Position numbers and translations under genes: made by a program
In this document: positions 11,076 through 29,994 of the stretch, piece by piece
Position numbering within the stretch: the first letter of the stretch is position 1
Layout of the letters: each line of letters starts with the position of its first letter
The notes under the pieces: model-generated
Databases searched by the model: none
The model's input: only the letters and a program-made list of their open reading frames with translations
Told to the model about the DNA's origin: nothing
Sequence record: NC_052983.1
Source of the DNA: Escherichia phage E21
Reading direction: 5' to 3' (one strand)
DNA: 58,536 nt

Positions 11076-13750
11076 TGTCTAACGTTTTCAAATCTCGTGG
11101 CCCTGAACTTTTCGACAATGGATACGAAGTCGTACCTATTACTCGTATCGACGCAACTGACAGCAAAGGGAAATTATTGTCTGGCGCGGGTAAAGCCCCG
11201 GCGTTAAAAGGGTGGCAGAAAATAGAGATCACTTCTGACATCGTTAATGAATGGGCGACGGGTAGTCGCTCTCGCTGTGGTGTGGGTATTCGTACCCACC
11301 GTAACCCTGCTGTCGATATCGACTGTTTAGACGCCGAAGCGTCAGAACACATGACGGCTTTCGTTGAGTCGGAAGTGGGCTTTGCTCCTATCCGTGTTGG
11401 GCGTGAACCTAAAGCGCTACTCCTCTATTATACAGAACGTCCTTTCACAAAAGTAAAATCAACCATCTTCGTTGATGAAAACGGGAATGAAAACGCTGTC
11501 GAGATATTAGGAAGCGGGCAACAATTCGTTGCTTACGGTATCCACCCGGGAACTAAGAAACCGTATAAATGGGTTACTAAAGGCGAGTCGCCTGCGGAAA
11601 ACCAAGCGGATTTTGACCTTGAAGAAATCACACTAGAAGACGCGAGAAAAATTATTGCGGAATTCGACCGGTATGCGAAAGAGCGCGGTTGGAAACCTTT
11701 AAAAAGTAAAAGCGGTACGGTCATCAAGCCATCTTTGGGCTACTACTTAGATGCTCCGGAAGAACTATCAGACTGGTCGGACGAGTCGGACTTTGACGAT
11801 GATGAAGACGATTGGGTCACTACTGATGATATCACCGATAAATGGGACGGTACTTACGAAGAACTTTACGAAATCTTCGAAAATGATATCGAACCATCTT
11901 ACGATTACCACACTTGGATTCCTGTTCTGGCTGCACTTAAAGACGCCGAACGTGAGCCGGACGAGTTTAAAGAGATCGCGAGAATGTGGTCTGCTCGGGC
12001 CGAGGAGTCTTTCGATAACGATGCCTTTGAAGATAAATGGGAAAACGGTAATTTCAATCGTGTTGGTAAATACGCTAAGACATTACGAGGAGTAATTGCC
12101 GAAGCGGAAAAGATCCAAGGCGTTCGCGAAATTGAGGACGTAGTTATACCTTTATTCGAAAAAGCTACTGACTTGGCCGAGTGGACTTTAGCTGCCGACC
12201 GCCTACGTGAAACGTGGGCTTTCGGTTTAGAAAGAGAGACGGCCATAAACATTGCTTGCGAAAAGTATAAGAAAGTCACTAACGGGTTAAAACTTACGGA
12301 CGTTCAAAAGAAACGATATCTTAGTATCGATTACTCTCTCTTTGACGCTCCCGAATGGTTGGCTCCTTGGGTTTATTGTACTACGGATAACGAGTTTATT
12401 AACTTAGACAATAGAACCAGAATGAACCCTAAATCTTTCGCGAATGCCTATAACCGAGAAACTGTGAAGAAATTCGGGGTAGCTGCGGACGTTTTCGCCA
12501 CGGTTGAAAGACCCGTTCCTGTTATCCACGATACGATGTATTACCCGTTGATGCACGGTGAGATGCCTAAGAACAAATGGAAGCGGGTTCCGGGTATTAA
12601 TGACAAGCGTGTTTTCGAATACAACGGTTTGACGTTCTTAAATACCTTTGACCATCGTTCCATGCCTGAGACCGCAACAAAAATTTCGACCGCTGGATAT
12701 AAGGCGATCGGGGAGGTAAAACGATACTTCGAAATACAGTATCCAGATCCAGACGAACGAAGACATGCGATGGACTGGATCGCGTGGGTTATCAATAATC
12801 CTGTTAGAAAGATTAACTATATGCTTCTCGTTCTTGGTGGTCAGGGTTCCGGTAAAACCATCGTTAAGAAGTTTATGGAACACATGCTCGGCTCTGATAA
12901 CGTCTCTACGATTTCGAATAAGGTTATCCATGGTAATTTTACCGGGTGGCAGTCTGGTCACATGCTCAAAGTTATTGAGGAAATATCGGTGAGTGGTCAT
13001 CGCTACGACGTTATGAACTCATTGAAAGAGCCGATATCGAATGAAACGTTACAGATCGAAGCGAAGTACCGTGACCCACGCCAGTGTGTGAATACTTCGT
13101 CGTATATGGCATTTACCAATGATGTTGGTGCTTTGCCTCTTACATCAAGTGACCGTCGCTTCTTGTTAGTTCGTAGTGCGTTCCAGCACAAGCGTGAAGT
13201 CACTGAATACCTACGGAAAGACCCTAATTACTTTAAACGGTTTGAGAAAGCCTTTACTAAACACGCACCGGAGATCCGCAAATGGTTTAGCGAGTGGGAG
13301 TATTCCGAGGGCTTCAAACACGATGGTAACGCTCCTGAAACGGTGAGTATGGGAAGCATGTCTTTAGCGTCAGAAGACGATTTCACCTCCGTAGTAATGG
13401 GGGCCGTAGATGATTGTGAGAAAGAGTTAGAATTTACATCGGGGATCACAGACGAAGTAATTTTCATTCCATCGGCAGTAGATTTAGTCCGAGATAGGTC
13501 TAAGGTTCCTAACGGGAAAATAATATATCGCATACTCGCTGAATATGGTTTCTTCCGGCCTGTGGATTCTCGTACACAAATAAGATTTAATGACGTAAGA
13601 GGACAAGTTGTTGTCGCGAATAGACATAAATGGCTCTATCCTGATGGGAGTGTCAACGTAGATAAGATTAAAGAGCATTTAGAGGAGAACGAACGCCGGG
13701 TAGAAGAACAAGAAAGCAAGAGAGAGTTAGAAGAAACTGACGTTTTCTAA
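11075..13750 (+). CDS. DNA primase-helicase (prim-pol-like N-terminus, P-loop D5/SF3-type C-terminus)
   Basis: 891 aa; Walker A LGGQGSGKT and Walker B-like region in C-terminal half; acidic linker; typical phage primase/helicase layout. Confidence 0.8.
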   Translation: MSNVFKSRGPELFDNGYEVVPITRIDATDSKGKLLSGAGKAPALKGWQKIEITSDIVNEWATGSRSRCGVGIRTHRNPAVDIDCLDAEASEHMTAFVESEVGFAPIRVGREPKALLLYYTERPFTKVKSTIFVDENGNENAVEILGSGQQFVAYGIHPGTKKPYKWVTKGESPAENQADFDLEEITLEDARKIIAEFDRYAKERGWKPLKSKSGTVIKPSLGYYLDAPEELSDWSDESDFDDDEDDWVTTDDITDKWDGTYEELYEIFENDIEPSYDYHTWIPVLAALKDAEREPDEFKEIARMWSARAEESFDNDAFEDKWENGNFNRVGKYAKTLRGVIAEAEKIQGVREIEDVVIPLFEKATDLAEWTLAADRLRETWAFGLERETAINIACEKYKKVTNGLKLTDVQKKRYLSIDYSLFDAPEWLAPWVYCTTDNEFINLDNRTRMNPKSFANAYNRETVKKFGVAADVFATVERPVPVIHDTMYYPLMHGEMPKNKWKRVPGINDKRVFEYNGLTFLNTFDHRSMPETATKISTAGYKAIGEVKRYFEIQYPDPDERRHAMDWIAWVINNPVRKINYMLLVLGGQGSGKTIVKKFMEHMLGSDNVSTISNKVIHGNFTGWQSGHMLKVIEEISVSGHRYDVMNSLKEPISNETLQIEAKYRDPRQCVNTSSYMAFTNDVGALPLTSSDRRFLLVRSAFQHKREVTEYLRKDPNYFKRFEKAFTKHAPEIRKWFSEWEYSEGFKHDGNAPETVSMGSMSLASEDDFTSVVMGAVDDCEKELEFTSGITDEVIFIPSAVDLVRDRSKVPNGKIIYRILAEYGFFRPVDSRTQIRFNDVRGQVVVANRHKWLYPDGSVNVDKIKEHLEENERRVEEQESKRELEETDVF

Positions 13751-13773
13751 AATATCGCGATTTTCGGTTTAAA

Positions 13774-13800
13774 GAGGTCACATTACGTGGCCTTTTTTAT
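13774..13800 (+). terminator. rho-independent terminator after primase-helicase
   Basis: AGGUCAC-AUUAC-GUGGCCU (7-bp stem, one G.U) followed by UUUUUUAUU. Confidence 0.7.
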
Positions 13801-13806
13801 TGCCCG

Positions 13807-13828
13807 AAAAACGACGCTCCCGATCGGG
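13807..13828. repeat. 21-bp box AAAAACGACG(C/T)TCCCGATCGG, copy 1 (contains perfect palindrome CCCGATCGGG)
   Basis: Repeated with one mismatch at 14787..14807; flanks the ORF-free region. Confidence 0.7.
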
Positions 13829-13854
13829 AATGCACGTTTGGTCAAAAAATGAGC

Positions 13855-13871
13855 GTACAAAATTTATACAG
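13855..13871. repeat. near-palindromic box GTACAAAATTTATACAG, copy 1
   Basis: Second copy TGTACAAATTTTATACAG at 13974..13991; half-site GTTGTACAAAAA at 14080. Confidence 0.6.
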
Positions 13872-13973
13872 AAAAACGTTCAATATTTAACCGATTTTCG
13901 GGTGATCGGATTTTTTGAGTGAATTTCCAATTTTTCATTTTTCCATTTTTTGGTCGAAAAACACCGAAAATGC

Positions 13974-13991
13974 TGTACAAATTTTATACAG
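13974..13991. repeat. near-palindromic box TGTACAAATTTTATACAG, copy 2
   Basis: Direct repeat of 13855..13871, about 120 bp apart. Confidence 0.6.
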
Positions 13992-14786
13992 GGTTTTTTG
14001 ACACAAAGTGTGTCGGTCATGTGTTCCGACGTGTGCGTGCCAGTTAACGTGTTGATTTTATTGAAAACGCATTTTTTATGTTGTACAAAAATCACCCAAC
14101 ACACATGATCGAATTACCTTTATATAGCTTATATATATATTTTTCTATTTTTCCTTTCCTATCTATTTTTTCTTTCTTCTGGAATTTCTATTTTATTATC
14201 TATTACTGTGTTTGCTGTGTCAGAAAGAAAGTAATATAGTAAAAACAATAACTTACCTTGGAACACCTATTGGAACATCAGCCGGCACAGCAATTTCCTG
14301 TGACACACCACCAGCCATGGTAATACCTAAAACGGCGCATAACTATTTGATATTATTACGGAATTACCTAAAATACCGGTCATTACGGTAAACCCGCCCT
14401 CCCGATCTACTAGCTACGCTAGACCCGAATTAATCTAATTAAATCAACGATTTGCGACGAGGGGCTATGGCAGATCCCGGACAAATTTCTGGAAGACGGC
14501 TCTGCGCACCCCCGCCCAACCGGACAACTCGTCCAAGTACCTTTTTCGATTTAAAAGTGATTCTTCTCTAGAAAGCACGGAGAGCGACGCACAGGCTTTA
14601 GCAATAGGGGACATCATCTAACACCGCGATCGCCTCGCACAATCGCACACGCTTACAATTTGAAGCACATCTAACCCACAACACCGCCCACCCGAACACC
14701 CAAACATCGAAACATCACGAAAAGCGGTTATATTTGTAAAAACGTCATGCGGTACAACCGCACACCCGAACACCCGCACAAAACGT

Positions 14787-14807
14787 AAAAACGACGTTCC
14801 CGATCGG
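14787..14807. repeat. 21-bp box AAAAACGACGTTCCCGATCGG, copy 2
   Basis: Direct repeat of 13807..13828. Confidence 0.7.
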
Positions 14808-15012
14808 CGTGTTCACCCGAGGCGCTATACCCCCGCTCAACGGATACGACCGACAAACTTAAAACCCCCTTTAAGTCGGAACAAACAAAGCGCCGTCTTC
14901 CGCCCTCAATCGAACCACACGGGCATAACTCATCGTAGGTAATACATCGGCCTTACCTAGCGGGCAAAACACGCTGAGGACGCAACACATGGCTTTACGG
15001 CAATTTTCCATA

Positions 15013-15067
15013 GGGTGGGGGGGAATGGGGGAGAGTGAGGGCTTGGGGTGGTGGTGTTGGGTGGGTA
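15013..15067 (+). other. G-run tract with G-quadruplex potential (C-rich on the transcribed minus strand)
   Basis: GGGTGGGGGGG..GGGGG..GGG..GGGG..GGTGG..GGGTGGG within 55 nt, directly 3' of the minus-strand small membrane protein gene. Confidence 0.5.
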
Positions 15068-15160
15068 GGCGCTGGCGCGACCGCATGGACAGACTGACGG
15101 CTAAGAACGAGAAAAGCCCCGCACGAATGCGAGGCCTTGGGGGTGGACTGTGTGGGACGG

Positions 15161-15400
15161 CTACCGGATTGTTAGGGCGACGCCTCCGGCGAACACCAAG
15201 ATCGCAACGCAAACCATGAAGACGACCATCATGATAGCGCCGATTGATTCGAGAACTAACGTAGTGCGGTGTAGACCGTCGAAACCGTGGTTTTGTAGGG
15301 CGCGGAAAAAGAACGAGAGAATATAAATCGAAATTAGGCCGAAGAAACACACGGCGCCCACGTTGTACACACCGGAGAGTAGCATCTTGAGAATGCTCAT
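15161..15400 (-). CDS. small membrane protein (2-3 predicted TM helices)
   Basis: Hydrophobic segments VGAVCFFGLISIYILSFFF and IGAIMMVVFMVCVAILVFAGGVAL; start set at internal ATG 15400 (ATGA overlap with upstream gene). Confidence 0.45.
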   Translation of the reverse strand: MSILKMLLSGVYNVGAVCFFGLISIYILSFFFRALQNHGFDGLHRTTLVLESIGAIMMVVFMVCVAILVFAGGVALTIR

Positions 15401-15975
15401 TTTCGACCGCCTCGTGCTTTTCGTTCTGCGATTATGTCTTTCTGGCAATAGTCGCTGAGTTGTTCCCAGTCGTCGGGGATCTCGACGTAATCGCCACCGT
15501 CTAGGCGGGAGGACATCAACGACTCAGAAAAGTAAATCCGCTCATTGGTTCGCACGTTCACGTACTCCGCAAACATTCCGCGAGGGTGTTCTGTCCCACT
15601 TCGTTGTAACGTTGCCCCCGTGTGTGCGATGGGGTCTTTTCCATTTTTGACGTAGACTAGCGCAGGGAATTTAAAACGGTCTTCCTGATCCTGAGTTTGT
15701 TCGTCCTCCTCGAACTTTACGCCACAGAACGGGCAATAATTCATAAACACAGGAAAATCAGATTTTGTTACCGTCGAGTAGAGCGTCCCGTCCGGTCTAC
15801 GCTCTTGATACTCTATGGTGAAGTCTAGAAAATATCGGGTTTTCAACTTTTTATTTTCAATAGCTAACACTTCTGTTTTCCACTCCGCCGAGTGTATTAT
15901 TGCGCCGTTCGGCAACTTACCGGCCACCCGATCAGCCATCGATTTTTGAATACGATCGAAACAGTTACAACTCAT
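15397..15975 (-). CDS. hypothetical protein with CxC...CPFC cysteine pairs
   Basis: 192-aa ORF, no antisense competitor of similar length. Confidence 0.5.
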   Translation of the reverse strand: MSCNCFDRIQKSMADRVAGKLPNGAIIHSAEWKTEVLAIENKKLKTRYFLDFTIEYQERRPDGTLYSTVTKSDFPVFMNYCPFCGVKFEEDEQTQDQEDRFKFPALVYVKNGKDPIAHTGATLQRSGTEHPRGMFAEYVNVRTNERIYFSESLMSSRLDGGDYVEIPDDWEQLSDYCQKDIIAERKARGGRK

Positions 15976-16184
15976 AATAATTGACTCCTAACAGACGAGT
16001 AGATGACGAAACACGCGCCCACCATCACAAAGGTGATTCCGGCTAAACTTACAGCGCGTAATTTCTCAAAGGTTTCGCTTCGGGTCGCTTTGTTCGTCCC
16101 CACGATACACAGGACAGCCACGCCGAACCCTAACACCATCAAAACGACACCGAGACAAAACGGCCAAGCGTTGATTATTTCCAT
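15972..16184 (-). CDS. small membrane protein (2 TM)
   Basis: 70 aa, two hydrophobic helices; ATGA overlap with downstream gene. Confidence 0.45.
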   Translation of the reverse strand: MEIINAWPFCLGVVLMVLGFGVAVLCIVGTNKATRSETFEKLRAVSLAGITFVMVGACFVIYSSVRSQLL

Positions 16185-16197
16185 TTTCGGCCACCCC

Positions 16198-16887
16198 CTA
16201 GCGATCCATAAATTGAGTATTTGCTATTCCGTGTGGGTTAATGACAATATCCCCGTAGGTGTCCGCGACAACGTTTAACACAATCCCCACGCTAGAATCG
16301 AACTGGTCGCAAAATAAATCGCCATCGCTGACTAGGTAAGGCTGGCGGAGTGTTTGCAGGTCAGTTAATACGGTGAGTGTGTTCAAGTTCTCCCCCGCGT
16401 CTAGCTCTGATTGCGTTAGTTCCTCGTCCTCTAGAACTTTCTCCCCTTGACATACTAGAACCGATTTACCGTTATCTTTCGCCAAGGGTGAGGTAATTAA
16501 ATAACAATCGTTTTTCCATGTGCCGAGATTCACGCCACCAATCAACGACGGAATGATTAACGGCGTTTTGACCTCACCTAGTAGTGTATTTATCGGCAAT
16601 AAATCAACGTGGAGAAAGTCGAACGAGTGAAAGCCGGTATTATGCGCTACGATCAGCTTTTCCATGCCATGCGCCCAAAAGCGCACACGGTTAAACCTAT
16701 CTTCCGGAACCATGCCAAGAGACTCAACGTCGCCCAGTTCATGACCCATTTTATGCAAGTGGTACGAAGCCCCACTGGCTTTAGTGCGGAAATCTTCAAA
16801 GCTAATATTTGTATGGAAAACGGCGCCCGCTTTAGTGTGGATCTTCATGTCAAACGTGTTTTGAGTACAACCAGTTAATACGATCAT
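16198..16887 (-). CDS. hypothetical protein
   Basis: 229-aa ORF; RBS AAAGGA upstream. Confidence 0.5.
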   Translation of the reverse strand: MIVLTGCTQNTFDMKIHTKAGAVFHTNISFEDFRTKASGASYHLHKMGHELGDVESLGMVPEDRFNRVRFWAHGMEKLIVAHNTGFHSFDFLHVDLLPINTLLGEVKTPLIIPSLIGGVNLGTWKNDCYLITSPLAKDNGKSVLVCQGEKVLEDEELTQSELDAGENLNTLTVLTDLQTLRQPYLVSDGDLFCDQFDSSVGIVLNVVADTYGDIVINPHGIANTQFMDR

Positions 16888-16936
16888 TTTTTAAATCCTT
16901 TAGTTTTAGTTTTAATTCAAGCCAAATTATTAAATA

Positions 16937-17737
16937 TTAGTTTCTTTGAGGTAACGGGCGAAACTCAATGCGACGAGAACCACCCTCAATCATGAAATTC
17001 TCGATCACTGATGACAGTCGGGCTTTCTGGTTTACTGCGATAGTCTCATAGTCACCGCGCCAACCGTACACCCGTAAAACTTTCGTCGGCGCACTATGCG
17101 ATAGAATGGCGAGGTTCCCATTGCGTATATCGTAGGCCAAACGGTCGAGGGTGTATATCATTGACCACACATATTGTAAGTCGTTATTAAACATCGTATT
17201 TATAGACACGATAATCTTGATCGCCCCTTGATTGTTTATAGCACTTTTGAAGTTTAGAACTTGGCCACGATATACGACACCAAACGACTTGCGAACGATC
17301 AAGAGGCTATCCATAAGCACTAAATCCAATGGGTCGGCTTTCTCCGCTTTACGCGTCATCTCCTTGATTCCTCTACGTTGCTGTGCGCTTGGTTGCATTG
17401 ATTTACGCAATGATACGTGAAGCGGTTTATCTAGGGATACGGTTTTATTTGATAACTCGGTCAAGTAGTCAACAGAACCACACGCACGGATCTTGTTCTC
17501 GACGATATTAAAACTTCCGGCTTCTACGGTTTCGGTTGCCACTTTCTCGCCCACGATAACGGTGATAAAGGCTTTATACGTTAGTTTTTCGCCGGCGGAA
17601 TATTTAACTTTGATAGATGCGGTCGCGTCTTTATTCGTGTAAGTAACCGTTTCATAGTGCGTAGGATTAGCTTTGATAACGTTACAAATTTGACGTAATT
17701 CCGCACGTTCTGAAGCACCGATAGTAATCTTTTTCAT
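16937..17737 (-). CDS. hypothetical protein
   Basis: 266 aa; preceded by promoter/leader cassette A and RBS GAGGA. Confidence 0.55.
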   Translation of the reverse strand: MKKITIGASERAELRQICNVIKANPTHYETVTYTNKDATASIKVKYSAGEKLTYKAFITVIVGEKVATETVEAGSFNIVENKIRACGSVDYLTELSNKTVSLDKPLHVSLRKSMQPSAQQRRGIKEMTRKAEKADPLDLVLMDSLLIVRKSFGVVYRGQVLNFKSAINNQGAIKIIVSINTMFNNDLQYVWSMIYTLDRLAYDIRNGNLAILSHSAPTKVLRVYGWRGDYETIAVNQKARLSSVIENFMIEGGSRRIEFRPLPQRN

Positions 17738-17790
17738 TTTAAAATCCTCAATACTGGTTAAAGTTTCCGGTTCGTTCCGGCTATGTGTGT

Positions 17791-17819
17791 AATATAATGC
17801 TACCGCTTTCAGGTGTCAA
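17791..17819 (-). promoter_or_regulatory. sigma70-like promoter, cassette A (TTGACA-17-TATATT) with conserved leader
   Basis: Minus-strand TTGACAcctgaaagcggtagcatTATATT; ~85-bp cassette repeated near-identically at 19510..19590 and 21000..21075. Confidence 0.6.
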
Positions 17820-17898
17820 CATGTTTTTATAATTATTTTAGATAATAAAAAAGGACGGCCACCAGAAAAGATGACCGCCCCGATTGTTGATGCTTCGA

Positions 17899-18120
17899 TT
17901 ACCGTGTGAGCATCGTAACCACGGATTTTTTAACCATTTCCAAGGAATCCCCGCCAAGGCTCACACCTTGCCCGCAGAAAGTCCACGGCTTGAGGTGGTG
18001 TGGTGTCTTGGCAATCGTCCCGATCCATACACCGCCCGCAACAACGTAATAAATATTTTCGCCTCGCTCTTGGTAAATCTCGATCGTCTTATCCAAGGTT
18101 GGATTATTTACCGGCTTCAT
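17899..18120 (-). CDS. hypothetical protein
   Basis: Track ORF 17899..18174 trimmed to internal Met (MKPVNN) to limit overlap with upstream gene. Confidence 0.35.
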   Translation of the reverse strand: MKPVNNPTLDKTIEIYQERGENIYYVVAGGVWIGTIAKTPHHLKPWTFCGQGVSLGGDSLEMVKKSVVTMLTR

Positions 18121-18754
18121 TTTCTCCCCCTTTAATCTTAACGAGTTCTTGCTTGTACTCGGATCCGAGCACATAATTTTTATTTTCTTCCTTGGGATAA
18201 GGCAATACCGGATATCGAAGCAACTTTTTATACTTCTTCACGACCGAACGGCTCCCCGTAAAATAAACGTAACGATGCTTAGATGTTCTGACTTGTCGAT
18301 ACGTCTTGCTTTCCTTTCCTTGATAATGCCGAGAGTGTTTACCTTGCTCCGTGTATTTATCGGTGCGCGCTTTCGTCGCCCCCGTGTAGATGAAATTAGA
18401 CGCTTGATAAATATATCCGTTGTGGTTCATACCGCGATCCGCATACGACACGATGACAAGGTTTTCACTTTTCAACTCAGCCATAGCGAAGGCGATCAAC
18501 TGCGACGGAGCGTTACGGATTGGACGAATAAAACAAAGTCGGTTTAACTCAAAAACGTGGCTTTTGTACTCCTCGCCCAATATTCCAACACATAGCGGGT
18601 TGCTGGCCGGCTTACCGATAGTTAGAACCCCGACAAGCTCCTCGTCTTCGAAGAACCCGAAAGCGTAAGATATGCTAGGTCGACGTTTCGCATAATGGTA
18701 GTTTAGGATTATGTCTAAACAGTCTTTAGGATCAACGCGTCTCATCGTGTACAC
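18104..18754 (-). CDS. hypothetical protein with GNAT-like C-terminal motif (possible acyltransferase / Mom-like)
   Basis: 216 aa; ...IVSYADRGMNHNGYIYQASNFIYTG resembles GNAT motif B; assignment is tentative. Confidence 0.45.
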   Translation of the reverse strand: MYTMRRVDPKDCLDIILNYHYAKRRPSISYAFGFFEDEELVGVLTIGKPASNPLCVGILGEEYKSHVFELNRLCFIRPIRNAPSQLIAFAMAELKSENLVIVSYADRGMNHNGYIYQASNFIYTGATKARTDKYTEQGKHSRHYQGKESKTYRQVRTSKHRYVYFTGSRSVVKKYKKLLRYPVLPYPKEENKNYVLGSEYKQELVKIKGGENEAGK

Positions 18755-18757
18755 GTT

Positions 18758-19498
18758 TTAACCCTCCCACGTCCACGATTCTGAGGCGTCACGAACAATA
18801 ATTTCGGCCGGACGATTCGCGCGTATCGCAACGTCTTTACCATCAACGAAGTAGACCGCGAAAAAATGCCCGAACACGTCGCCATCTTTCACGTGGATTT
18901 CTCGCCCGTCGTCTTCGCAGTAGAACACTGTAAGCCCGTCAACTGATGCTTCGTTGTTCACTTCGAAACCAAGGCTTGACAGGCCGTCTAACAGTGGGCG
19001 CATTGTGTCGAAACTTTCAGGGAGTGACGCCAAGATCAAGGCGTCTAAATCGCTAACCGCGTTACGTTTAAGCGTCACACACCCGCCGATCGTGAAAGTT
19101 ATGTCCCAACCTTCGGCTTCTTCGCCACGGCTAAAAAATATGGCTTTTAATTCTTTCCCGTCGATTGTTTTCGCAAATGTTGTCGCTCCGTGAGATTTAT
19201 CAAGGTCTAAAGAGAACCCCAGCGCTTTCATTACGGCGATAGTTCGTGCGGATAAGTCCGCATCATTGGCCATATGACAGCTCGCACCATGATCGAACAC
19301 GCTCACCTCGACGCTCTCAAATAGGTAACGTGCTAGTGGAATGAATTTATCGAAATCCGCAATTAATGCTATCGCCCCCGATAATGTTTTAACATCGCCC
19401 ACCTTGGCGCGAGGGTTAACTGTCAAAATATAATTACGAACACTTTCGGGCATATCAAAAGGGCTGTTATCGGTTACAACGTTAGAAATGAAAGTCAT
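18758..19498 (-). CDS. hypothetical protein
   Basis: 246 aa; preceded by promoter cassette B and RBS GAGGA. Confidence 0.55.
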   Translation of the reverse strand: MTFISNVVTDNSPFDMPESVRNYILTVNPRAKVGDVKTLSGAIALIADFDKFIPLARYLFESVEVSVFDHGASCHMANDADLSARTIAVMKALGFSLDLDKSHGATTFAKTIDGKELKAIFFSRGEEAEGWDITFTIGGCVTLKRNAVSDLDALILASLPESFDTMRPLLDGLSSLGFEVNNEASVDGLTVFYCEDDGREIHVKDGDVFGHFFAVYFVDGKDVAIRANRPAEIIVRDASESWTWEG

Positions 19499-19552
19499 GA
19501 TTTAAATCCTCAAAACTGGTTTAAGTTTCCGGTTCGTTCCGGCGATGTGAGT

Positions 19553-19581
19553 AATATAATACTACCGCTTTCAGGTGTCAA
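19553..19581 (-). promoter_or_regulatory. sigma70-like promoter, cassette B (TTGACA-17-TATATT)
   Basis: Near-identical to cassettes A and C. Confidence 0.6.
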
Positions 19582-19609
19582 CAAGTTTTTTATAAATATT
19601 TTAGGCAAT

Positions 19610-19650
19610 AAAAAACCTCTTACCGTGGCACCGAATAAGAGGTTTTAGTT
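19610..19650 (-). terminator. rho-independent terminator (structurally bidirectional)
   Basis: CCUCUUA-13 nt loop-UAAGAGG; U6 on minus strand, UUUUAGUU on plus. Confidence 0.65.
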
Positions 19651-19729
19651 ACTAACTTGTTTTCATGTTTTCAAATCAAGGCTATATTAACGGATATTTT
19701 TCAACTTGTAAACAATAAATTTCTCAGCG

Positions 19730-19758
19730 GAAAAGAAAAAAGCCCGCATATACGGGCT
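19730..19758 (-). terminator. rho-independent terminator
   Basis: Minus RNA AGCCCG-UAUAUG-CGGGCU followed by UUUUUCUUUUCC. Confidence 0.65.
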
Positions 19759-20047
19759 TAAAATATAAGGCTTAATGACCTAAAATTACGCAAACTTTAC
19801 GAAGTGTGGCACAAGCAACCCAAATCAACCAACGGATGCGAACTTATCCACCGTTGAGCCGAACAATAACACCGTTACGTGGTGCTGTCAAGCGTCGCTA
19901 CACATAGCCCAATTGAACCGCGCCACGGTGAATATATCCCACAGGATACGCACTTTAATCGAAACAAAACTAGCCCGTTACTACTGCGAGCCTCAGATCT
20001 AAACGGCTTACCGCATGAACAATAATACCAGTTTTTCTTTTCCCTGA

Positions 20048-20413
20048 TCACCATACAGACCCCCTTACGTTCGTTAGCGTGTCCCTATAACTCCGGTATA
20101 AATTTTTTGCGCCTCGTATCCATTCGCCGGCGATCTCCCCCGAGAAAAGAACCGGCTCGTAAACCGGATAAGTGACATTAGGGTAATCCGTTCTTACGTC
20201 GTCGATCCTAACGTATGCCCTCCGGTGTCCATAAGAATATCGGACGGTTAGGACTCTAAGCAACTTGTTGTTAACATGGAACACCACGCCATAAGAGTAA
20301 TTAAATTCCGGTAATGATAAATCGTTGCTAGGCCTCCCGATAGCCACTACCGGTAGATTTAGAAACTCATTACAAACCTCATAAAATTTGAAACAATTTA
20401 CTGAGTTACCCAT
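20048..20413 (-). CDS. hypothetical protein
   Basis: Track ORF 20048..20515 trimmed to internal Met (MGNSVN), which overlaps the stop of the upstream gene. Confidence 0.45.
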   Translation of the reverse strand: MGNSVNCFKFYEVCNEFLNLPVVAIGRPSNDLSLPEFNYSYGVVFHVNNKLLRVLTVRYSYGHRRAYVRIDDVRTDYPNVTYPVYEPVLFSGEIAGEWIRGAKNLYRSYRDTLTNVRGSVW

Positions 20414-20975
20414 GATATACAACCCCGCGCAGTTCCAGACCTCGGAAATTATAATAAATTTCAGACTCTCCGGCTTCGTTCGGCGCCCACATGCACACAG
20501 AAAAGTCGCCAGCATCGAACTCTCTTAGGTGTGGAATGTGACCGAAACGGCACCCGCCAGTGATTACCAGTTCGTCGATTGTTCCGAACTCCTCGCAACC
20601 CTCGACAACTTCTTCCAGTGCTTCGGCCAGTTCTTCGATGTAGGCTTCCACTTGTTCACGCCAAGACGCGCTTATTAATGCGTTAGCTTCCATCATCAAA
20701 CATTTTAATGAACTTTTGCACCCGCTGAAATCTAAAGGCGTTTCTAGCTCAACAGAATCAAACTCGCTAGACTGGACGATCTCCCATGCTTCCCCGAAGT
20801 AGTCGACGCTGATACATTCCGGCGCATTCATAAGATTATTTTCTTCGAAAAGGTCGCGTAATTGATTTTCGAAATCTCCGCGGGTATCTAATGAAGTTCC
20901 TTTAGGTAGACCCGTACTAACATCATCAACGATAGATTGGAAGATAGACGCTTTAGTGTATGCTAATTCTGCCAT
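20406..20975 (-). CDS. strongly acidic hypothetical protein (DNA-mimic-like composition)
   Basis: 189 aa from ATG 20975 (RBS GAGGA 8 nt upstream); ~40 D/E versus ~11 K/R; preceded by promoter cassette C. Confidence 0.5.
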   Translation of the reverse strand: MAELAYTKASIFQSIVDDVSTGLPKGTSLDTRGDFENQLRDLFEENNLMNAPECISVDYFGEAWEIVQSSEFDSVELETPLDFSGCKSSLKCLMMEANALISASWREQVEAYIEELAEALEEVVEGCEEFGTIDELVITGGCRFGHIPHLREFDAGDFSVCMWAPNEAGESEIYYNFRGLELRGVVYHG

Positions 20976-21029
20976 GGTAATACTCCTCAATACTGGTTAA
21001 AGTTTCCGGTTCGTTCCGGCTATGTGTGT

Positions 21030-21058
21030 AATATAATACTACCGCTTTCAGGTGTCAA
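21030..21058 (-). promoter_or_regulatory. sigma70-like promoter, cassette C (TTGACA-17-TATATT)
   Basis: Near-identical to cassettes A and B. Confidence 0.6.
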
Positions 21059-21080
21059 CATGTTTTTGTGATTATTTTAA

Positions 21081-21482
21081 TCAATCGGGGAAATAGGGAA
21101 TTTTACACTCACATAAGGTCAGATTTTCTATGTGGGTAAAAATAACCTCTAAGTGCAACGTCTTCCAGCACTGACCAGAATTAAGGAAATGCCGGCGGAT
21201 AATGAGCCAGCCCCGATCATCTTCGACTATTCCGGATATGCGAAGGCTTACAATAGTTTTGTTGTCTGAGTAAGCCGGTTTACTCTCCGGATCAGCTCGG
21301 AAGTAAAACGCATTAGCTAGGTTTAAAATAGTCTGTATGTCGTGCGTAGATAGTTGTAACTCTTTTTCGTGCGGACTCAAGAACGAAGAAAGCCGGGATC
21401 TCGCCCGGCGTGAATTGGTATCTTTAGGAACTGATGAAAAGTATGTCACACCGTCCACCCCATCAACTGTATAATCGCTCAA
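21081..21482 (-). CDS. hypothetical protein
   Basis: 133 aa; TTG start with RBS GAGGTG upstream. Confidence 0.4.
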   Translation of the reverse strand: MSDYTVDGVDGVTYFSSVPKDTNSRRARSRLSSFLSPHEKELQLSTHDIQTILNLANAFYFRADPESKPAYSDNKTIVSLRISGIVEDDRGWLIIRRHFLNSGQCWKTLHLEVIFTHIENLTLCECKIPYFPD

Positions 21483-21654
21483 AACTTTTCACCTCTCGAT
21501 GTGTAACCGTTCGATTATATGAAATGTTACGAGTTAACATAAAGCGCATATCCCACGCCGGACAGAATAGCGAACCGTCTGCGTTTACCGTAACTTTTTC
21601 GTCGTCAGCGATTAAAATCATACCGCTGTTTAATGTGATTTTATTCTTCATCAT
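21463..21654 (-). CDS. hypothetical small protein
   Basis: Track ORF trimmed to internal Met (MMKNKITL). Confidence 0.3.
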   Translation of the reverse strand: MMKNKITLNSGMILIADDEKVTVNADGSLFCPAWDMRFMLTRNISYNRTVTHREVKSFERLYS

Positions 21655-21883
21655 TACCGCCCCCACGTATCGCAGATATAAACGCCTCCCCGCTCTCCTG
21701 ATCAGGCCACGCAATCCCGCCGACCACCCCAAACGCTACCCCATAAAGACAGAAACGCGCGACGGTTAGATCACCATATACGGCCAAAGTTCCCACCGCC
21801 CCCGCGAACCCTACCGCACAAAGAGACGCGACGACAAAACCAAACGCCCCGCGAGCCTCTAAATTATTTAATTTCTTAGCCAT
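21641..21883 (-). CDS. small membrane protein (2 TM)
   Basis: 80 aa; hydrophobic helices FGFVVASLCAVGFAGAVGTLAV and FCLYGVAFGVVGGIAW. Confidence 0.45.
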   Translation of the reverse strand: MAKKLNNLEARGAFGFVVASLCAVGFAGAVGTLAVYGDLTVARFCLYGVAFGVVGGIAWPDQESGEAFISAIRGGGNDEE

Positions 21884-21894
21884 CGATAAACTCC

Positions 21895-22221
21895 TTACGG
21901 GTGAATAATAATATTATCGTTGCGAGTTCGAACCGGCTCCGATAAATACATATTAGCCACCTTACCGCTTTTTATATCCTTTTTAATCTCGGACACCATC
22001 AAGCCCGACCGGATAATTACAGAAGACGGGCTACTCACTCTTTCTTCTGATATCGCAACAGGGAAAGGGAAATCATTCAATAAGTTATCGATGAACTTTT
22101 CCAGATAATCCGCGTCGGCTTTATGGGAGAGAACGACATATTGCTCATAGTTCGCCTCGATCCCTGTGACAGTCAGACGATGCGCAGAACGGAAAAGATC
22201 GAAAGGAATTTGTTTGCTCAT
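21895..22221 (-). CDS. hypothetical protein
   Basis: Start at ATG 22221 (MSKQIPFD) with RBS GAGG; downstream of promoter D. Confidence 0.45.
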   Translation of the reverse strand: MSKQIPFDLFRSAHRLTVTGIEANYEQYVVLSHKADADYLEKFIDNLLNDFPFPVAISEERVSSPSSVIIRSGLMVSEIKKDIKSGKVANMYLSEPVRTRNDNIIIHP

Positions 22222-22253
22222 TACTAAAACCTCAGTTTGTTTGTGTGCTGAGA

Positions 22254-22282
22254 ATATTAGCAACACCTCGGGCCGGTGTCAA
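22254..22282 (-). promoter_or_regulatory. sigma70-like promoter D (TTGACA-17-TAATAT), shares the -35/upstream element of cassettes A-C
   Basis: Minus-strand TTGACAccggcccgaggtgttgcTAATAT. Confidence 0.45.
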
Positions 22283-22287
22283 CAAGT

Positions 22288-22562
22288 TTTTATCTATAAA
22301 AATTCTGACGGAACAAAGGAAACGCGCCCACCGGTGCGCCCGTACATACATATAAGTCGGCCAGTTTGTACTTATCTACAAAAATTTCGGGCTTACTTCA
22401 AAAACCTCGCGGGCCGATGATTTTCTGTGACGATTTAAAAACTTTTCCGGCCGGCTTACTTCAAAAACCTCGCGGGCTGAAAAAATTCCCGTGAGAAATA
22501 AAAACCGGCCAATGGATTTATCTACAAAAATTAGAACCTTACTTCAAAAACCTCGCCGGTTG
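22288..22562. repeat. iteron-like direct repeat array (3x TATCTAyAAAAATT and 3x CTTACTTCAAAAACCTCGC(G/C)GG)
   Basis: Motif A at 22291, 22373, 22519; motif B at 22392, 22455, 22538; in the divergent control region between minus promoter D and plus promoter 22621. Confidence 0.7.
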
Positions 22563-22620
22563 ACGGAAATCCTCGGGTAACATCGATTAAAACTTTACGG
22601 CCAAAAATACATAAAAACGT

Positions 22621-22649
22621 TTGACACCGCAAACAGGTTAGATTAGTAT
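22621..22649 (+). promoter_or_regulatory. sigma70-like promoter of plus-strand early operon (TTGACA-17-TAGTAT)
   Basis: TTGACAccgcaaacaggttagatTAGTAT, then RBS AAGGGG and ATG 22691. Confidence 0.5.
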
Positions 22650-22690
22650 TCTCGGACATTAAAGATGATTAGTCACAACAAGGGGAAAAC

Positions 22691-23122
22691 ATGATCGAGT
22701 CAGAAGATATTATTTTCGTAAACGGCGACAAACCTAAAATCGATAACTCGCCAGCGCTAGAAAGACGCAACACGGTTAGTGTAGAACTAGAACGAGAGTT
22801 AACCGCAGCGTCTTCGATTCCGGACAAACTTACAGTAGTACCAACAAAAGGGAGACCAACCAGCATGGTAGGTATGATCGTATCGTTAGATGTCGGAGAC
22901 GTGTTCACTAAATCCGAGTTTATTCTTGAAGTTTCAGGTCTCGACGCCATGAGCGAGAGCGTAGACCTGACTACACGAAAAGAAAAACTCAGACAAAGCG
23001 TAAAAGCGTCTATGACACACGCTAAAAAGAAAACTAAGGGCGAATATACTTTAGAAACGCACCACTTTATTACGCCGTTGGGTCGCCTTTACATTCAAGT
23101 TTTAGTGACCCGTATTTCCTGA
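22691..23122 (+). CDS. hypothetical protein
   Basis: 143-aa ORF, first gene after promoter. Confidence 0.5.
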   Translation: MIESEDIIFVNGDKPKIDNSPALERRNTVSVELERELTAASSIPDKLTVVPTKGRPTSMVGMIVSLDVGDVFTKSEFILEVSGLDAMSESVDLTTRKEKLRQSVKASMTHAKKKTKGEYTLETHHFITPLGRLYIQVLVTRIS

Positions 23123-23203
23123 GCAATTTTTTGTAGGTTTCACGTTTTTTAAAAAGGCGTGACACCCTATGGTAAACAACCACCCTATCGGAGAGAAAAA
23201 CCA

Positions 23204-23515
23204 ATGGAACGCAACGACAATTTAGAGCACACCACCCCCGCAGACCCGGATACGCAAATCGTCAAGTTGTTAGAGGGGAACCCGGATCTTTTAAAGCACT
23301 TTTATAAACTTTCCGCATTAGCGGGAAACGTGGGGGAGATGGAACGCTCTTTCGAAGAACGAGTTGACGCCGTGTTTAAAGTAGGTATCCGCCTAGTCAT
23401 GGTCGCGAGCAACCGGAAAAACCTTATCGTAACCGATGACGATGTGGCAAAGGCGGAGAACTCAACACTGGAAGTTAGCGAAAATAACGGCAATGTTAAA
23501 TATATGATCAAGTAG
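23204..23515 (+). CDS. hypothetical protein
   Basis: Start set at MERNDN, which has RBS GGAGAG; the upstream ATG lacks an RBS. Confidence 0.45.
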   Translation: MERNDNLEHTTPADPDTQIVKLLEGNPDLLKHFYKLSALAGNVGEMERSFEERVDAVFKVGIRLVMVASNRKNLIVTDDDVAKAENSTLEVSENNGNVKYMIK

Positions 23516-23520
23516 GTAAT

Positions 23521-23841
23521 ATGAAAAATTCAAACGTAGCACTCGCCATTGATTCCGTTTTGGTAAAAAAGAAAATTGATATTATCCCGGTTTTTAAATC
23601 GTTAGAGGAAGAATATCAAATGCGGATACAAGCGTCGTGGTCAGGCATCACCGCGCACACGCCAGAACGACGCATCTACACCCACGGCCACCCGACTACT
23701 AAGATGGCAACAACACCGGAACAACGTACAACGTATCGCCTCCGTCTATTGAAATTCCTACGGTGGCTCTACGCGAACAACTACACAACGGGGCCACTGT
23801 TAGAAATCAAATCGTGGCTAGAGGAGCAAGAGGAATGGTAA
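23521..23841 (+). CDS. hypothetical protein
   Basis: 106-aa ORF. Confidence 0.45.
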   Translation: MKNSNVALAIDSVLVKKKIDIIPVFKSLEEEYQMRIQASWSGITAHTPERRIYTHGHPTTKMATTPEQRTTYRLRLLKFLRWLYANNYTTGPLLEIKSWLEEQEEW

Positions 23842-24182
23842 AGGTCTTATACAACAGCGAACAAGCGCAAGTAAACCAGTTGCGAGACCAGATTAAATCG
23901 CACACTGAGTCGTTTGAAACAGCGATGGCCGAAGTCGACCAGATCATTAAAGAAAATATCGAGACATACCTAAACGATATATCCGGGTTAATGATGTCGA
24001 TAGTTAGAGTGTATGACAACGCGGAGATTGAGGACAAAGCGGTGGCCTTAGATCTTGTTCACTCTAAAGCGGTAACTCGTTTAGCTGCTATCGAAGATAA
24101 GAGCATAGAACTACGCGCCCATATTGAAAACTTAGTATCCACCATTAAAACCGGAGTGATTAAAAACAATGAAACCATTTGA
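23835..24182 (+). CDS. hypothetical protein (coiled-coil-like)
   Basis: Start set at MVKVLYN with RBS GAGGAGCAAGAGGA; overlaps previous stop. Confidence 0.45.
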   Translation: MVKVLYNSEQAQVNQLRDQIKSHTESFETAMAEVDQIIKENIETYLNDISGLMMSIVRVYDNAEIEDKAVALDLVHSKAVTRLAAIEDKSIELRAHIENLVSTIKTGVIKNNETI

Positions 24183-25257
24183 TAAATTTATTGCTTTTGC
24201 AATATCTGAACCAGCAGACCCTAACAATACGACTTCGTTTTCCGCATTAGCTAACGGGACAGAAGACCAACTAAAACAACTAGGCCGAGAACTAGAAACA
24301 AGCCTGAGAAACTTACCGATCGGAGACCCAAGCGCTATGCAGTGGACGCGCCACGGTTTTGCTAAACCCGACGAGAACGCCGAACCGATCACCGTTGTAG
24401 ATGAAGTCCTAGGGGACATGGAAGACACACCATACGTTATGATAGACGAAGCGGGTAAATATCTTGTGTTCACTTTCGAAGAACGTGCTCGAATGCTAAG
24501 CCCGACAACGATCAAGGACGAATTAGAGGTTAAAGTAAAAGATTGGATAGAACGAGTTGGTGACACCCCGACAAAACGTGAACGTAATGATATGCGCGAT
24601 GAAATCATCAATGACTTGTTGCCAAAGGCCACAATAAAGCGCACCAAGACATACGCCATGATCATCAAGGGTGTTCTTATTGTCTTCGCCGGTAGCAATA
24701 ACATCGGTGAAAAAGTAGCATCGGCCGTAAGAAAGGTAGTAGGGTCTCTCCCAGTAGTACCATGGTTTGAGCATTCGGCCCTCATTACGGAGTTTCTAAA
24801 GAAAATCGCTACGGTAGACTTTGACCCGGAAGATGCAGTAGGCCAAGCGCTAGATAAATTTGAGATTGTCCGTAGTGCTAAAGTCTCCGCTGAAACCGGT
24901 GCGTACACTTTCAAAGATGTTTTTGACATCACGAATGACGTTTCCTTCAAAGAAGCGCTAGGACAAACTAACGGATACTCATACCCTCTCGGGATCACCG
25001 AAGCGAATTTAGAATTACGACATGACGCCACAGACAGCCCTATCGGTTTTGTTCTTACGGCCAAAGGCGTTTTAAAGAGCGTAAATTGGAATGACGAGCC
25101 GGAAAATATTTTCGACGACTCAGTGTTTGACACGAACGAGGAACGGGAGCGTGCTCGATTTATTTTCTCTACGTGGGACGCTTACACCTTAGTTACGGCC
25201 GTGCTAGGAGCGCTACACAACGCAAACGCAAACCGATTTGTAGAAGACGATATGTAA
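24169..25257 (+). CDS. rdgC: RdgC-like recombination-associated protein
   Basis: 362 aa; block RNDMRDEIINDLLPKA...VRKVVGSLPVVPW closely parallels the E. coli RdgC core (...LRKSLGSLPVVPL) from memory. Confidence 0.7.
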   Translation: MKPFDKFIAFAISEPADPNNTTSFSALANGTEDQLKQLGRELETSLRNLPIGDPSAMQWTRHGFAKPDENAEPITVVDEVLGDMEDTPYVMIDEAGKYLVFTFEERARMLSPTTIKDELEVKVKDWIERVGDTPTKRERNDMRDEIINDLLPKATIKRTKTYAMIIKGVLIVFAGSNNIGEKVASAVRKVVGSLPVVPWFEHSALITEFLKKIATVDFDPEDAVGQALDKFEIVRSAKVSAETGAYTFKDVFDITNDVSFKEALGQTNGYSYPLGITEANLELRHDATDSPIGFVLTAKGVLKSVNWNDEPENIFDDSVFDTNEERERARFIFSTWDAYTLVTAVLGALHNANANRFVEDDM

Positions 25258-25259
25258 TT

Positions 25260-25460: not shown

Positions 25461-25467
25461 AAACGCA

Positions 25468-25503
25468 TTGACACCTTGCGGGGGATTAGTTACGATTCCC
25501 CCG
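25468..25503 (+). promoter_or_regulatory. sigma70-like promoter (TTGACA-17-TACGAT) overlapped by a 7-bp inverted repeat (operator-like)
   Basis: TTGACAccttgcgggggattagtTACGAT; inverted repeat CGGGGGA..11 nt..TCCCCCG spans the -10. Confidence 0.45.
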
Positions 25504-25526
25504 TATTATAAACGTAAGAGGCTCAC

Positions 25527-28914: not shown

Positions 28915-28919
28915 TTTAA

Positions 28920-29155: not shown

Positions 29156-29184
29156 TTGACACCGCGATCCGGAGTCGATAGTAT
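29156..29184 (+). promoter_or_regulatory. sigma70-like promoter (TTGACA-17-TAGTAT), same family as 22621
   Basis: TTGACAccgcgatccggagtcgaTAGTAT, then RBS AAGGGGG and ATG 29216. Confidence 0.5.
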
Positions 29185-29993: not shown

Positions 29994-29994
29994 C

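Follow-up and report, generated by a model that had tools for sequence, protein, structure and literature searches.

The closest described counterparts of the repeats considered here are the PeSLs of T4-type phages, motifs of ~100 bp that combine an AT-rich tract, a sigma-70-like early promoter, a stem-loop terminator, and a Shine-Dalgarno (SD)-ATG (PMC2839356, PMC4122927). They occur as repeats among ORFans, where they promote the shuffling of modules (Arbiol et al. 2010, PMC2839356; Comeau et al. 2014, PMC4122927). We have analyzed a stretch of 58,536 nucleotides from Escherichia phage E21 (NC_052983.1), the whole of which is referred to below as the window, in which a promoter-plus-leader cassette of 96 nt is present three times in an arm of small accessory genes. 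In the way they work these cassettes resemble PeSLs, but neither descent nor strict anatomy places them in that family. We assign a probability of about three in four to the reading that they are terminator-insulated composite early expression cassettes that would be read by host sigma-70 RNA polymerase, possess a hairpin-led leader, and are kept alike by recombination and constraint, with the same recombination also moving blocks of genes.

The likeness to PeSLs lies in size and setting, as a composite motif of ~100 bp repeated in a plastic, non-essential ORFan region (in E21, 96 nt three times in the accessory arm), and in composition: an AT-rich tract ahead of an early promoter of sigma-70-like type, an SD-ATG closing the 3' end, and a terminator stem-loop associated with the motif. 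In a sister genus it seems to extend to behavior as well, since recombination between PeSL copies deletes or inserts the genes that they flank and a deletion of this kind is seen in Logan contig L019 relative to Providencia phage Kokobel1; none is seen among seven Lavrentievavirus genomes. In contrast to the PeSLs, the E21 elements belong to an unrelated lineage (a Casjensviridae siphovirus) with no sequence homology. Their terminators lie outside the repeat, each with its own sequence and none at the third cassette; their conserved stem-loop is downstream of the predicted transcription start site (TSS), in a fixed leader of 47-48 nt; and only three copies are present per genome.

Other systems offer partial parallels. 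The early promoters of T4 and T5 and the A1-A3 promoters of T7 are multiple near-consensus sigma-70 promoters with A-rich UP-like regions and a phage-specific extended consensus, and they fire right after entry. The E21 set likewise consists of multiple near-consensus sigma-70 promoters with A-rich upstream regions, but three of its members share a whole 5' untranslated region (UTR), and all of its members have a bipartite spacer motif, CC-N7-GG, with a counterpart that changes from genus to genus. Morons are reportedly autonomous promoter-gene-terminator units of lambdoid phages, and the E21 units are similarly self-contained, with cassette 3 and gene E present in E21 and Kokobel1 and absent from Proteus phage Saba. 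Unlike morons, the E21 units lie in a conserved, syntenic early arm of a virulent-type phage and are not prophage-expressed insertions. The 5' UTR of ompA is an example of a 5'-terminal stabilizing stem-loop, and the E21 leaders resemble it in placing a short GC hairpin a few nucleotides from the predicted 5' end, with structure kept and sequence varying across lineages; the E21 stem, however, is only 4 bp and the TSS is a predicted one. The cassettes are ordinary in kind, a real, conserved regulatory repeat that is useful and not surprising. Two of their features are unexplained and mildly interesting: the genus-specific spacer motif common to the early promoters of Chi-like phages, and the strictly conserved 5' hairpin.

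A repeat search found one family of 96-nt direct repeats with copies at 17745-17840, 19507-19602, and 20984-21079, all on the minus strand. Cassette 3 is 97% and cassette 2 is 85% identical to cassette 1, with cassette 2 differing from the others at six leader or promoter positions and at further positions upstream. The 31-nt promoter core, TTGACACCTGAAAGCGGTAGYATTATATTAC, is present exactly three times in 58.5 kb and was found 0 times in 100 shuffles. Similarity begins ~22 nt upstream of the -35 hexamer and ends at the SD, and the 3' ends of the copies lie 7-8 nt ahead of the ATGs at 17737, 19498, and 20975. The cassettes span one regulatory region and no coding sequence, and both the coding and the further-upstream DNA are unrelated among copies. 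An earlier note on this DNA had proposed three promoter-plus-leader repeats ahead of these starts, and this is borne out by the repeat search and by the shuffles. Its description of a unit of ~85 bp that recurs almost unchanged has to be amended, as the repeat measures ~96 nt when the ~22 A/T-rich nucleotides upstream of the -35 are included, and copy 2 has diverged to 85%.

Read along the minus strand, a cassette consists of the A/T tract cTAAAATAATTATAAAAACATG, TTGACA, the 17-nt spacer CCTGAAAGCGGTAGYAT, TATATT, ACACAC, the leader AUAGCCGGAACGAACCGGAAACUUUAACCAGUAUUGAGGA, and 7-8 nt before the AUG. The leader of 47-48 nt comprises a 5'-proximal GC hairpin ~4 nt from the predicted 5' end, an A/U-rich stretch, and a strong SD. 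In cassette 1 (17738..17840) the UP-like A/T tract occupies 17820-17840, the -35 hexamer TTGACA 17814-17819, and the -10 hexamer TATATT 17791-17796, with a predicted TSS at ~17784; its leader holds the hairpin CCGG-AACGAA-CCGG at 17767-17780 and the SD GAGGA at 17745-17749, ahead of the gene J ATG at 17737. The corresponding features of cassette 2 (19499..19602, the most diverged copy) are the -35 at 19576-19581, the -10 at 19553-19558, a predicted TSS at ~19546, the hairpin at 19529-19542, and the SD at 19507-19511, ahead of the gene G ATG at 19498. Those of cassette 3 (20976..21079) are the -35 at 21053-21058, the -10 at 21030-21035, a predicted TSS at ~21023, the hairpin at 21006-21019, and the SD at 20984-20988, ahead of the gene E ATG at 20975.

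The cassette promoters, TTGACA-17-TATATT, match the sigma-70 consensus at 11 of 12 positions and are the three best sites in a 10-kb consensus scan. Upstream of the -35 is the A/T-rich tract CTAAAATAATTATAAAAAC, termed UP-like by comparison with the published UP consensus and kept in Kokobel1, contig L020, and Saba. The sequence aaaaa[c/t] is found at -44..-39 in all seven members of the promoter family described below, each of which has a plausible -10. The near-consensus hexamers, the 17-bp spacing, the strong SD-ATG, and the terminators ahead of two of the copies support their interpretation as promoter-plus-leader units that drive separate transcription units.

Promoter ranks and terminator folds together divide the leftward arm into four units. 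The first runs from promoter P4 (22254..22282, minus strand; TTGACA-17-TAATAT, 10/12 consensus) through genes A, B, C, and D (21081-22221), with no terminator at its end and with a short leader of 26 nt that lacks a hairpin. Cassette 3 leads into E, F, and a 59-aa CxxC open reading frame (ORF), followed by a terminator at 19740..19759 (-12.6 kcal/mol, z -4.3) that also ends the first of two candidate small RNAs. Two small promoter-terminator units precede cassette 2, which leads into G, a Mom-like gene, and I, and this unit ends at a terminator at 17852..17881 (12 pairs plus a T-run; -20.9 kcal/mol, z -6.3) directly upstream of cassette 1. Cassette 1 leads into J, K, L, M, and N, with a terminator at 15113..15138 (-16.4 kcal/mol). 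Directly upstream of cassette 2 is a further terminator (19606..19646; -15.6 kcal/mol, z -3.7), which also ends the second candidate small RNA and shows compensatory stem changes in relatives. Cassette 3 has no upstream terminator, and gene D ends at 21081. All four terminators are on the minus strand.

In the mechanism that we propose, host sigma-70 RNA polymerase would read each cassette copy, as suggested by the predicted promoter activity and TSS, and each cassette would start its own unit (E-F, G-Mom-I, and J-N), units 1 and 2 being shielded from upstream transcription by the intrinsic terminators. With a promoter for each unit and terminators between them, expression of the accessory genes would be strong, parallel, and independent, and would begin soon after DNA entry. 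The early timing is suggested by analogy with the Casjensviridae phage JS26, in which the early cluster is the cos-proximal one of hypothetical genes (PMC8754663), with gp01-13 acting as a region that enters early (preprint 10.64898/2025.12.19.695335). The hairpin would protect the 5' end of the mRNA and possibly also serve as a recognition site for a factor, and the copies would be kept alike by recombination between them together with a common constraint, with the same recombination able to remove or add the gene block between two copies.

A 108-nt cassette query matches three places in essentially every Lavrentievavirus record (~26 sequenced members) and two places, at 80% identity, in Kokobel1 (Kokobelvirus); matches are confined to records of these two genera. 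Kokobel1 is syntenic with E21, with genes A-G, I, J, and M orthologous at 34-72% amino-acid identity, and it has promoter units before its E, G, and J homologs (~5218, 6716, and 9027 in its sequence, L002), each directly behind a terminator, as well as equivalents of P4 and the rightward promoters with TTGACACC-N7-GG. Saba (Cenphatecvirus) has promoters before its I-containing and J-containing blocks, and it lacks both gene E and the cassette before it, so that D and F are adjacent. Duplicated promoter-plus-leader cassettes are found in several genera in the arm reading toward the genome end, including two in Chi (L018, +18172 and +20807) and two in SLP-22 (L013, -4661 and -1903). The analogous cassettes of Chi, Saba, and the Redjac and Jacuna types are unrelated in sequence and have the same layout, including the 5' hairpin. 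The earlier note had said that its proposal would fall if the cassettes were absent or not conserved in related phages; they are instead kept at the same gene positions within the genus and in sister genera, as the Lavrentievavirus records, Kokobel1, and Saba demonstrate. Pattern scans of IMG/VR and JGI metagenomes returned only Kokobel1 itself and chance matches in unrelated sequence, and no description of these promoters was found in the Chi, Saba, and RP6-type genome papers or in a full-text literature search.

The promoters of the three cassettes belong to a larger family with a common spacer element. With up to one mismatch, TTGACACC-N7-GGT has seven sites in the window against 0.6 expected, and the members of the family (17819-, 19581-, 21058-, 22282-, 22621+, 25468+, and 29156+; aaaaac..TTGACACC-N7-GG(T/A)) all lie within the divergent early region at 17.8-29.2 kb, with none in the structural or replication modules in a motif scan of the whole window. 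An eighth site, at 19891 on the minus strand, has the palindrome GCACC-N7-GGTGT displaced by 3 nt. The rightward members are 22621..22649, which has TTGACACC-N7-GGT and drives the genes from 22691 on (a DUF7609 protein and those following), and 25468..25496 and 29156..29184, both with TTGACACC-N7-GGA. P4 had been singled out previously as a fourth promoter sharing the -35 and upstream element of the cassettes; it is a real near-consensus site and does share them, but the element is common to seven promoters and not special to four. Across 20 promoters from the E21 window, Kokobel1, L019, L020, and L022, the CC at -29/-28 and the GG at -20/-19 are as invariant as the -35 hexamer, with the seven positions between them nearly free. 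The P4 spacer is a perfect palindrome, ACACC-N7-GGTGT (22263-22279), of which the cassettes have only the ACC/GGT pair. Each of the other genera sampled has a spacer element of its own, which is common to early promoters in both arms and starts inside the -35 hexamer: TTGACACAYGCSGCRTGTGT in Jacunavirus SLP-22, a near-perfect 8-1-8 palindrome (ACACAYGC-S-GCRTGTGT); TTGACAYAYGC....RTRTGT in Redjacvirus PatoteraRojo (ACAYA-N7-TRTGT); TTGACTMCC-N5/6-GGGGTY in Saba (GACnnCC..GGnGTC); and TTGAC[A/G]TACGYSRCRTGT in Chi.

This element gives rise to the most durable alternative, in which the cassettes are primarily operator regions where a phage DNA-binding protein reads ACACC-N7-GGTGT in the spacer (CC-N7-GG at most sites), and perhaps CCGG-N6-CCGG at +5 to +18, to shut off or tune an early regulon in the manner of Cro at lambda OR/OL; the near-identity of the copies would then reflect co-evolution with that protein and not recombination. 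The invariance of CC at -29/-28 and GG at -20/-19 in 19-20 of 20 promoters around a free N7, the perfect 5-N7-5 palindrome of P4, and the presence of a palindrome-like element at the same place in every genus sampled all argue for it, and the element is centered at about -24, where a bound dimer would be expected to occlude RNA polymerase. Directly upstream of primase, a region in which Chi is reported to encode two putative transcription regulators (PMC4342425), E21 encodes a 94-aa protein (10791-11072, plus strand). It has a helix-turn-helix-like stretch by eye, AKLSVRGVSQAIDRGE, and is 80% identical in the motif-sharing Kokobel1 and L019, against 35-70% for its neighbors; it is a weak candidate for the factor reading the spacer motif. 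Pfam, NCBIfam, and PDB searches with this protein were without match, and the same searches found no DNA-binding domain in any early protein. Only three of five arm positions are complementary in the three cassettes, and the UUCG/GAAA tetraloops in other genera and one G-U wobble point the leader element to RNA rather than DNA. We consider this alternative possible but doubtful as the primary explanation; it is compatible with expression cassettes read by sigma-70 RNA polymerase and does not exclude them.

The leader is the second shared feature. Folding of its first 30 nt shows the CCGG-N6-CCGG hairpin to be significant (z about -2.1 to -2.3), and this 4-bp hairpin is the only consensus structure among 17 distinct leaders. 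Within the Lavrentieva/Kokobel clade the stem is invariant and the loop varies (AACGAA, GACGAA, GGCGAA, GAACGA, or AACGAG). The internal leftward units of six lineages have leaders of 45-57 nt with a 5'-proximal GC hairpin built from unrelated stems: CCGG/CCGG in E21, CGGGGA-CAAC-UCCCCG in the E-unit of Kokobel1, AGGC-GAAACA-GCCU in Redjac, GACG-GAAA-CGUC in Saba, GGGCG-AAAC-CGCCC in Jacuna, and CCC-UUCG-GGG in Chi, with z from -2.3 to -4.8 in the lineages other than the E21 type. The rightward promoters have leaders of 24-36 nt without a hairpin (mean z +0.44). A single C-to-U change distinguishes the L019 E-unit hairpin from that of Kokobel1 and retains a G-U pair; this wobble pair and the UUCG/GAAA tetraloops favor a leader element that acts at the RNA level. 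Protection of the mRNA 5' end is most likely its role, being the simplest and in line with E. coli 5' stem-loops in general, and the hairpin may also be a recognition site for a factor. Shared post-transcriptional control through the CCGG..CCGG element, as suggested earlier, is thus supported in part: the hairpin is the only conserved leader structure and has analogs in five other lineages, but a second, SD-occluding hairpin (CUUUAA/UUGAGG), predicted for single leaders, is not a consensus structure in the 17 distinct leaders and was set aside. Binding of CsrA or Hfq at GGA or ARN motifs, considered from the leader sequence, was likewise discarded, as such motifs are too common in purine-rich leaders to count. 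A covariance search against Rfam 15 gave only a sub-threshold Trp_leader match at 19734-19819 (E = 0.43), which falls on a terminator.

The same leader could be viewed as a nut-like or rrn-like antitermination site, with the hairpin as boxB and CUUUAAC as boxA, allowing terminator read-through and delayed expression. Small GC hairpins with purine- or A-rich loops (AACGAA, GACGAA, GAAACA, GAAA) do recall lambdoid boxB, copies 1 and 3 have in CUUUAAC a 7-nt match to the core of rrn boxA, and terminators are present downstream of every unit. The boxA-like stretch, however, varies within the genus (CTTAAAC, AATTAAAC, ATTAAAC) and is replaced in Kokobel by CATTAAAC and GATTAATC, no small arginine-rich N-like protein was recognized among the early ORFs, and Rfam gave no match. 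Read-through is moreover not needed where each unit has a strong promoter of its own. A lambdoid nut site was rejected on these grounds, and we regard an antitermination role of the leader as very unlikely.

Copies within one genome are more alike than orthologs between genera: E21 cassettes 1 and 3 are 97% identical and the two of Kokobel1 96%, against 64-80% across genera. In E21 the E-unit has a cassette of the cassette 1 type, and in the Kokobel clade it has a different leader, which indicates that one lineage underwent replacement or conversion. Copies 1 and 3 share linked variants (ACA...CTTTAAC versus ACT...CTTAAAC) in some genomes, as do copies 1 and 2 in others. The clearest trace of recombination is in L019 (58,246 bp, ~84% identity to Kokobel1), whose colinearity with Kokobel1 holds as far as the ATG after the G-unit cassette and picks up again at the J-unit cassette, the two alignments overlapping by 126 nt that are the cassette itself. 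L019 thus lacks a three-gene block of 2.3 kb (Kokobel1 6805-9118), and the junction is a single chimeric cassette that has its upstream flank from one copy and its 3' leader part from the other, as would be expected of homologous recombination between direct repeats or of an inserted cassette-plus-genes module. The genes that lie between cassettes 2 and 1 are different in each lineage examined; between the G-unit and J-unit cassettes are G-Mom-I in E21, G-I in PLY284, G-284aa-118aa in Kokobel1, G-73-309-118 in L021, G-73-289-74 in L020, and nothing in L019. Separately, the metagenomic contigs L021 and L022 begin 18 nt upstream of a cassette -35, 101 nt before the G homolog. Short-read assemblies of these phages seem to stop at the repeated cassette, and variants bounded by it could therefore go unseen in metagenomes.

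That the repeats are remnants or sites of mobile elements (resembling miniature inverted-repeat transposable elements, or homing) or recent segmental duplications with no regulatory role is scarcely credible: they are highly similar and bound a block deletion in one lineage, but they lack terminal inverted repeats and target duplications, are always oriented with the genes and end at SD-ATG, keep their positions across genera with proteins only 35-70% identical, flank genes that are not paralogs with likeness stopping at the SD, and had no copies outside the phage clade in the IMG/VR and JGI metagenome scans.

Several observations weigh against the reading of the repeats as insulated early cassettes with an RNA hairpin, kept alike by recombination. 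The TSS, the promoter strength, and the timing are predictions for this phage; we infer them, along with promoter activity and the role of the hairpin. Recognition by sigma-70 does not account for the CC-N7-GG spacer motif. Single whole leaders fold weakly (z -0.8 to -1.4 over 50 nt), which gives no riboswitch-like fold, and a whole-leader structure of that kind was rejected on the weak z and the negative Rfam search. As the 4-bp stem never varies in the clade, there is no covariation inside the family, and the element may instead be read at the DNA level, as two CCGG sequences 10 bp apart forming an operator or roadblock. The 4 unpaired nucleotides 5' of the hairpin, counted from the assumed TSS, are at the limit for 5'-end protection in the ompA/RNase E literature. 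Lastly, in the seven Lavrentievavirus genomes no gene-content difference has a cassette at its border; cassette borders as within-genus breakpoints were rejected, the indels at 15769-15890, 16195-16950, 17112-17188, and 18150-18756 all missing the cassettes.

A broader scheme can be sketched in which the Casjensviridae share an "early-regulon code": each early promoter would have a genus-specific palindrome (-32 to -16; in E21 ACACC-N7-GGTGT, reduced to CC-N7-GG) read by a co-evolving phage regulator, a 5' RNA hairpin in the internal leftward units would either be read by a second factor or give protection from one, and the cassettes would double as portable recombination modules shuffling accessory, probably anti-defense, genes. 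We offer this tentatively, as a proposal more likely wrong than right.

For a group of Proteus phages under development for therapy, these results supply a concrete transcription map of the accessory arm, with four leftward units, three rightward promoters, terminators, and two candidate small RNAs. They also indicate that T4-type myoviruses are not alone in having composite promoter cassettes that serve as recombination junctions. Being natural, insulated, and (as predicted) strong expression modules, the cassettes could be reused for engineering these phages. As 96-bp direct repeats they predict deletion derivatives of 1.5, 1.8, and 3.2 kb, which matters for the genome stability of therapeutic stocks, and the genus-specific spacer motif suggests that the Chi-like phages have an early regulator yet to be discovered.

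E21 is a Proteus phage of the Casjensviridae, genus Lavrentievavirus. Some 20 Proteus phage genomes of 58-59 kb from this genus (P2-71, pPM_01, PM87, Jing313, and others) match its region 14800-22700 from end to end at 93-96% identity. Colinearity with record PV596763 allowed a gene map to be drawn: portal, terminase, helicase, and DNA polymerase at 1-10.5 kb (minus); primase at 11075-13750 (plus); a non-coding stretch at ~13750-15100 that holds the physical genome end of several GenBank records at ~14500-14520; a leftward arm of small genes to which no function is assigned, at 15161-22221 (minus); RdgC-like, Dam, and other genes at 22691-31320 (plus); and lysis and tail genes from 31570 onward (minus). 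This map places the cassettes in the leftward arm of a divergent, cos-proximal accessory region. Its left border had been put at 14871 and lies instead at ~15113-15161, as given by the terminator at 15113-15138 and the last gene, 15161-15400; the ORF at 14871-15350 overlaps both and is probably spurious. The non-coding stretch of ~1.3 kb between primase and the end of the leftward arm contains short C/A-rich repeats, ACCGCCCACCCGAACACCC, and a duplicated AAAAACGACG[C/T]TCCCGATCGG at 13807 and 14787. Genomes at this level of identity (93-96%) have also been deposited as phages of Pseudomonas, Staphylococcus, Enterococcus, and Salmonella (PV596763, PV593182, OR506460, OR699184-7); the host labels are implausible for genomes so nearly identical and may reflect contaminating Proteus or its phage.

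The genes of the three cassette units are all on the minus strand. Unit 3 consists of E (20406..20975, 189 aa), F (20048-20413), and the 59-aa ORF (19875-20054); unit 2 of G (18758..19498, 246 aa), the Mom-like gene (18104-18754), and I (17899-18120); and unit 1 of J (16937..17737, 266 aa, basic) followed by K, L, M, and N (16198-16887, 15972-16184, 15397-15975, and 15161-15400). The 59-aa ORF overlaps the end of gene F and has two CxxC pairs; it is kept in Kokobel1 (an annotated coding sequence, L002 6224-6424) and L019, is unannotated in most Lavrentievavirus records, and is probably a real small zinc-ribbon protein.

A function could be assigned to only one product of the arm, the Mom-like protein, which matches Pfam PF25680 at 120.8 bits against a cut-off of 27.1 and also PHROG 1384; Pfam, PHROGs, and NCBIfam gave no other assignment, the remaining proteins falling in PHROGs of unknown function. 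Mom-type DNA modification counters restriction, as in phage Mu. PDB sequence searches of the arm proteins returned no match, the one usable AlphaFold model gave no functional assignment, and the model of J was unusable (predicted local distance difference test, pLDDT, 48). Homolog searches found 3-7 close relatives only, confined to this phage clade. Three of the proteins are strongly acidic, namely E (isoelectric point (pI) 4.1, net charge -27), G (pI 4.6), and K (pI 5.0), a property that is compatible with DNA-mimic-type inhibitors without being evidence for them. The idea of an anti-defense or host-takeover island is not established by these searches, in which the Mom-like gene alone received a function of the anti-restriction type. 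The slot of the Mom-like gene is hyperplastic in sequence comparisons, with the gene precisely absent (18150-18756) from Proteus phage PLY284 and unrelated genes in its place in Kokobel1, L020, and L021. Redjacvirus Providencia phages, which cannot otherwise be aligned, have a gene that matches gene K at 82.5% identity in protein and ~85% in DNA, and in PM87, PLY284, and DoubleBarrel a different segment takes the place of K, with five small genes in the last two. By this comparison gene K is a horizontally exchanged accessory gene with breakpoints at gene borders.

The two small promoter-terminator units ahead of cassette 2, on the minus strand at 19600-19891, are candidate phage small RNAs. 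In the first, TTGACA-17-TATTGT (19863-19891) would give a transcript of ~115 nt to the terminator at 19740-19759, and in the second, TTTACA-17-TAATAT (19684-19712) would give one of ~65 nt to the terminator at 19606-19646. They have no Rfam match and show no significant pairing with the cassette leaders (z -1.1 to +1.0), and a 21-nt inverted match nearby, at 19900-19920, was dismissed as at chance level and not conserved in Kokobel1. Both units are kept in P2-71, Kokobel1, L019, and L020 in layout, promoter hexamers, and compensatory terminator stems, with the invariant cores TTCGC[A/T]TCCGTTGGTTGATT and GATTTGAAAACA.

Two further elements lie in the divergent early region. At 25480-25510 an inverted repeat, GCGGGGGA-N11-TCCCCCG, brackets the -10 of the promoter at 25468, and the orthologous promoters of Kokobel1 (L002 ~680-706) and L019 (~3870-3897) have CGGGA-N11-TCCCG, with arms that differ and yet stay complementary; this is possibly a separate operator. 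The divergent promoter region at 22367-22559 contains three direct repeats with the core CTTACTTCAAAAACCTCGCGGG, a motif present three to five times in the equivalent region of Kokobel1 (L002 3649-3836) and PatoteraRojo (L010 7207-7470) and also upstream of SLP-22 +5217. These iteron-like sites, kept across genera, may serve as an origin or be bound by a conserved regulator.

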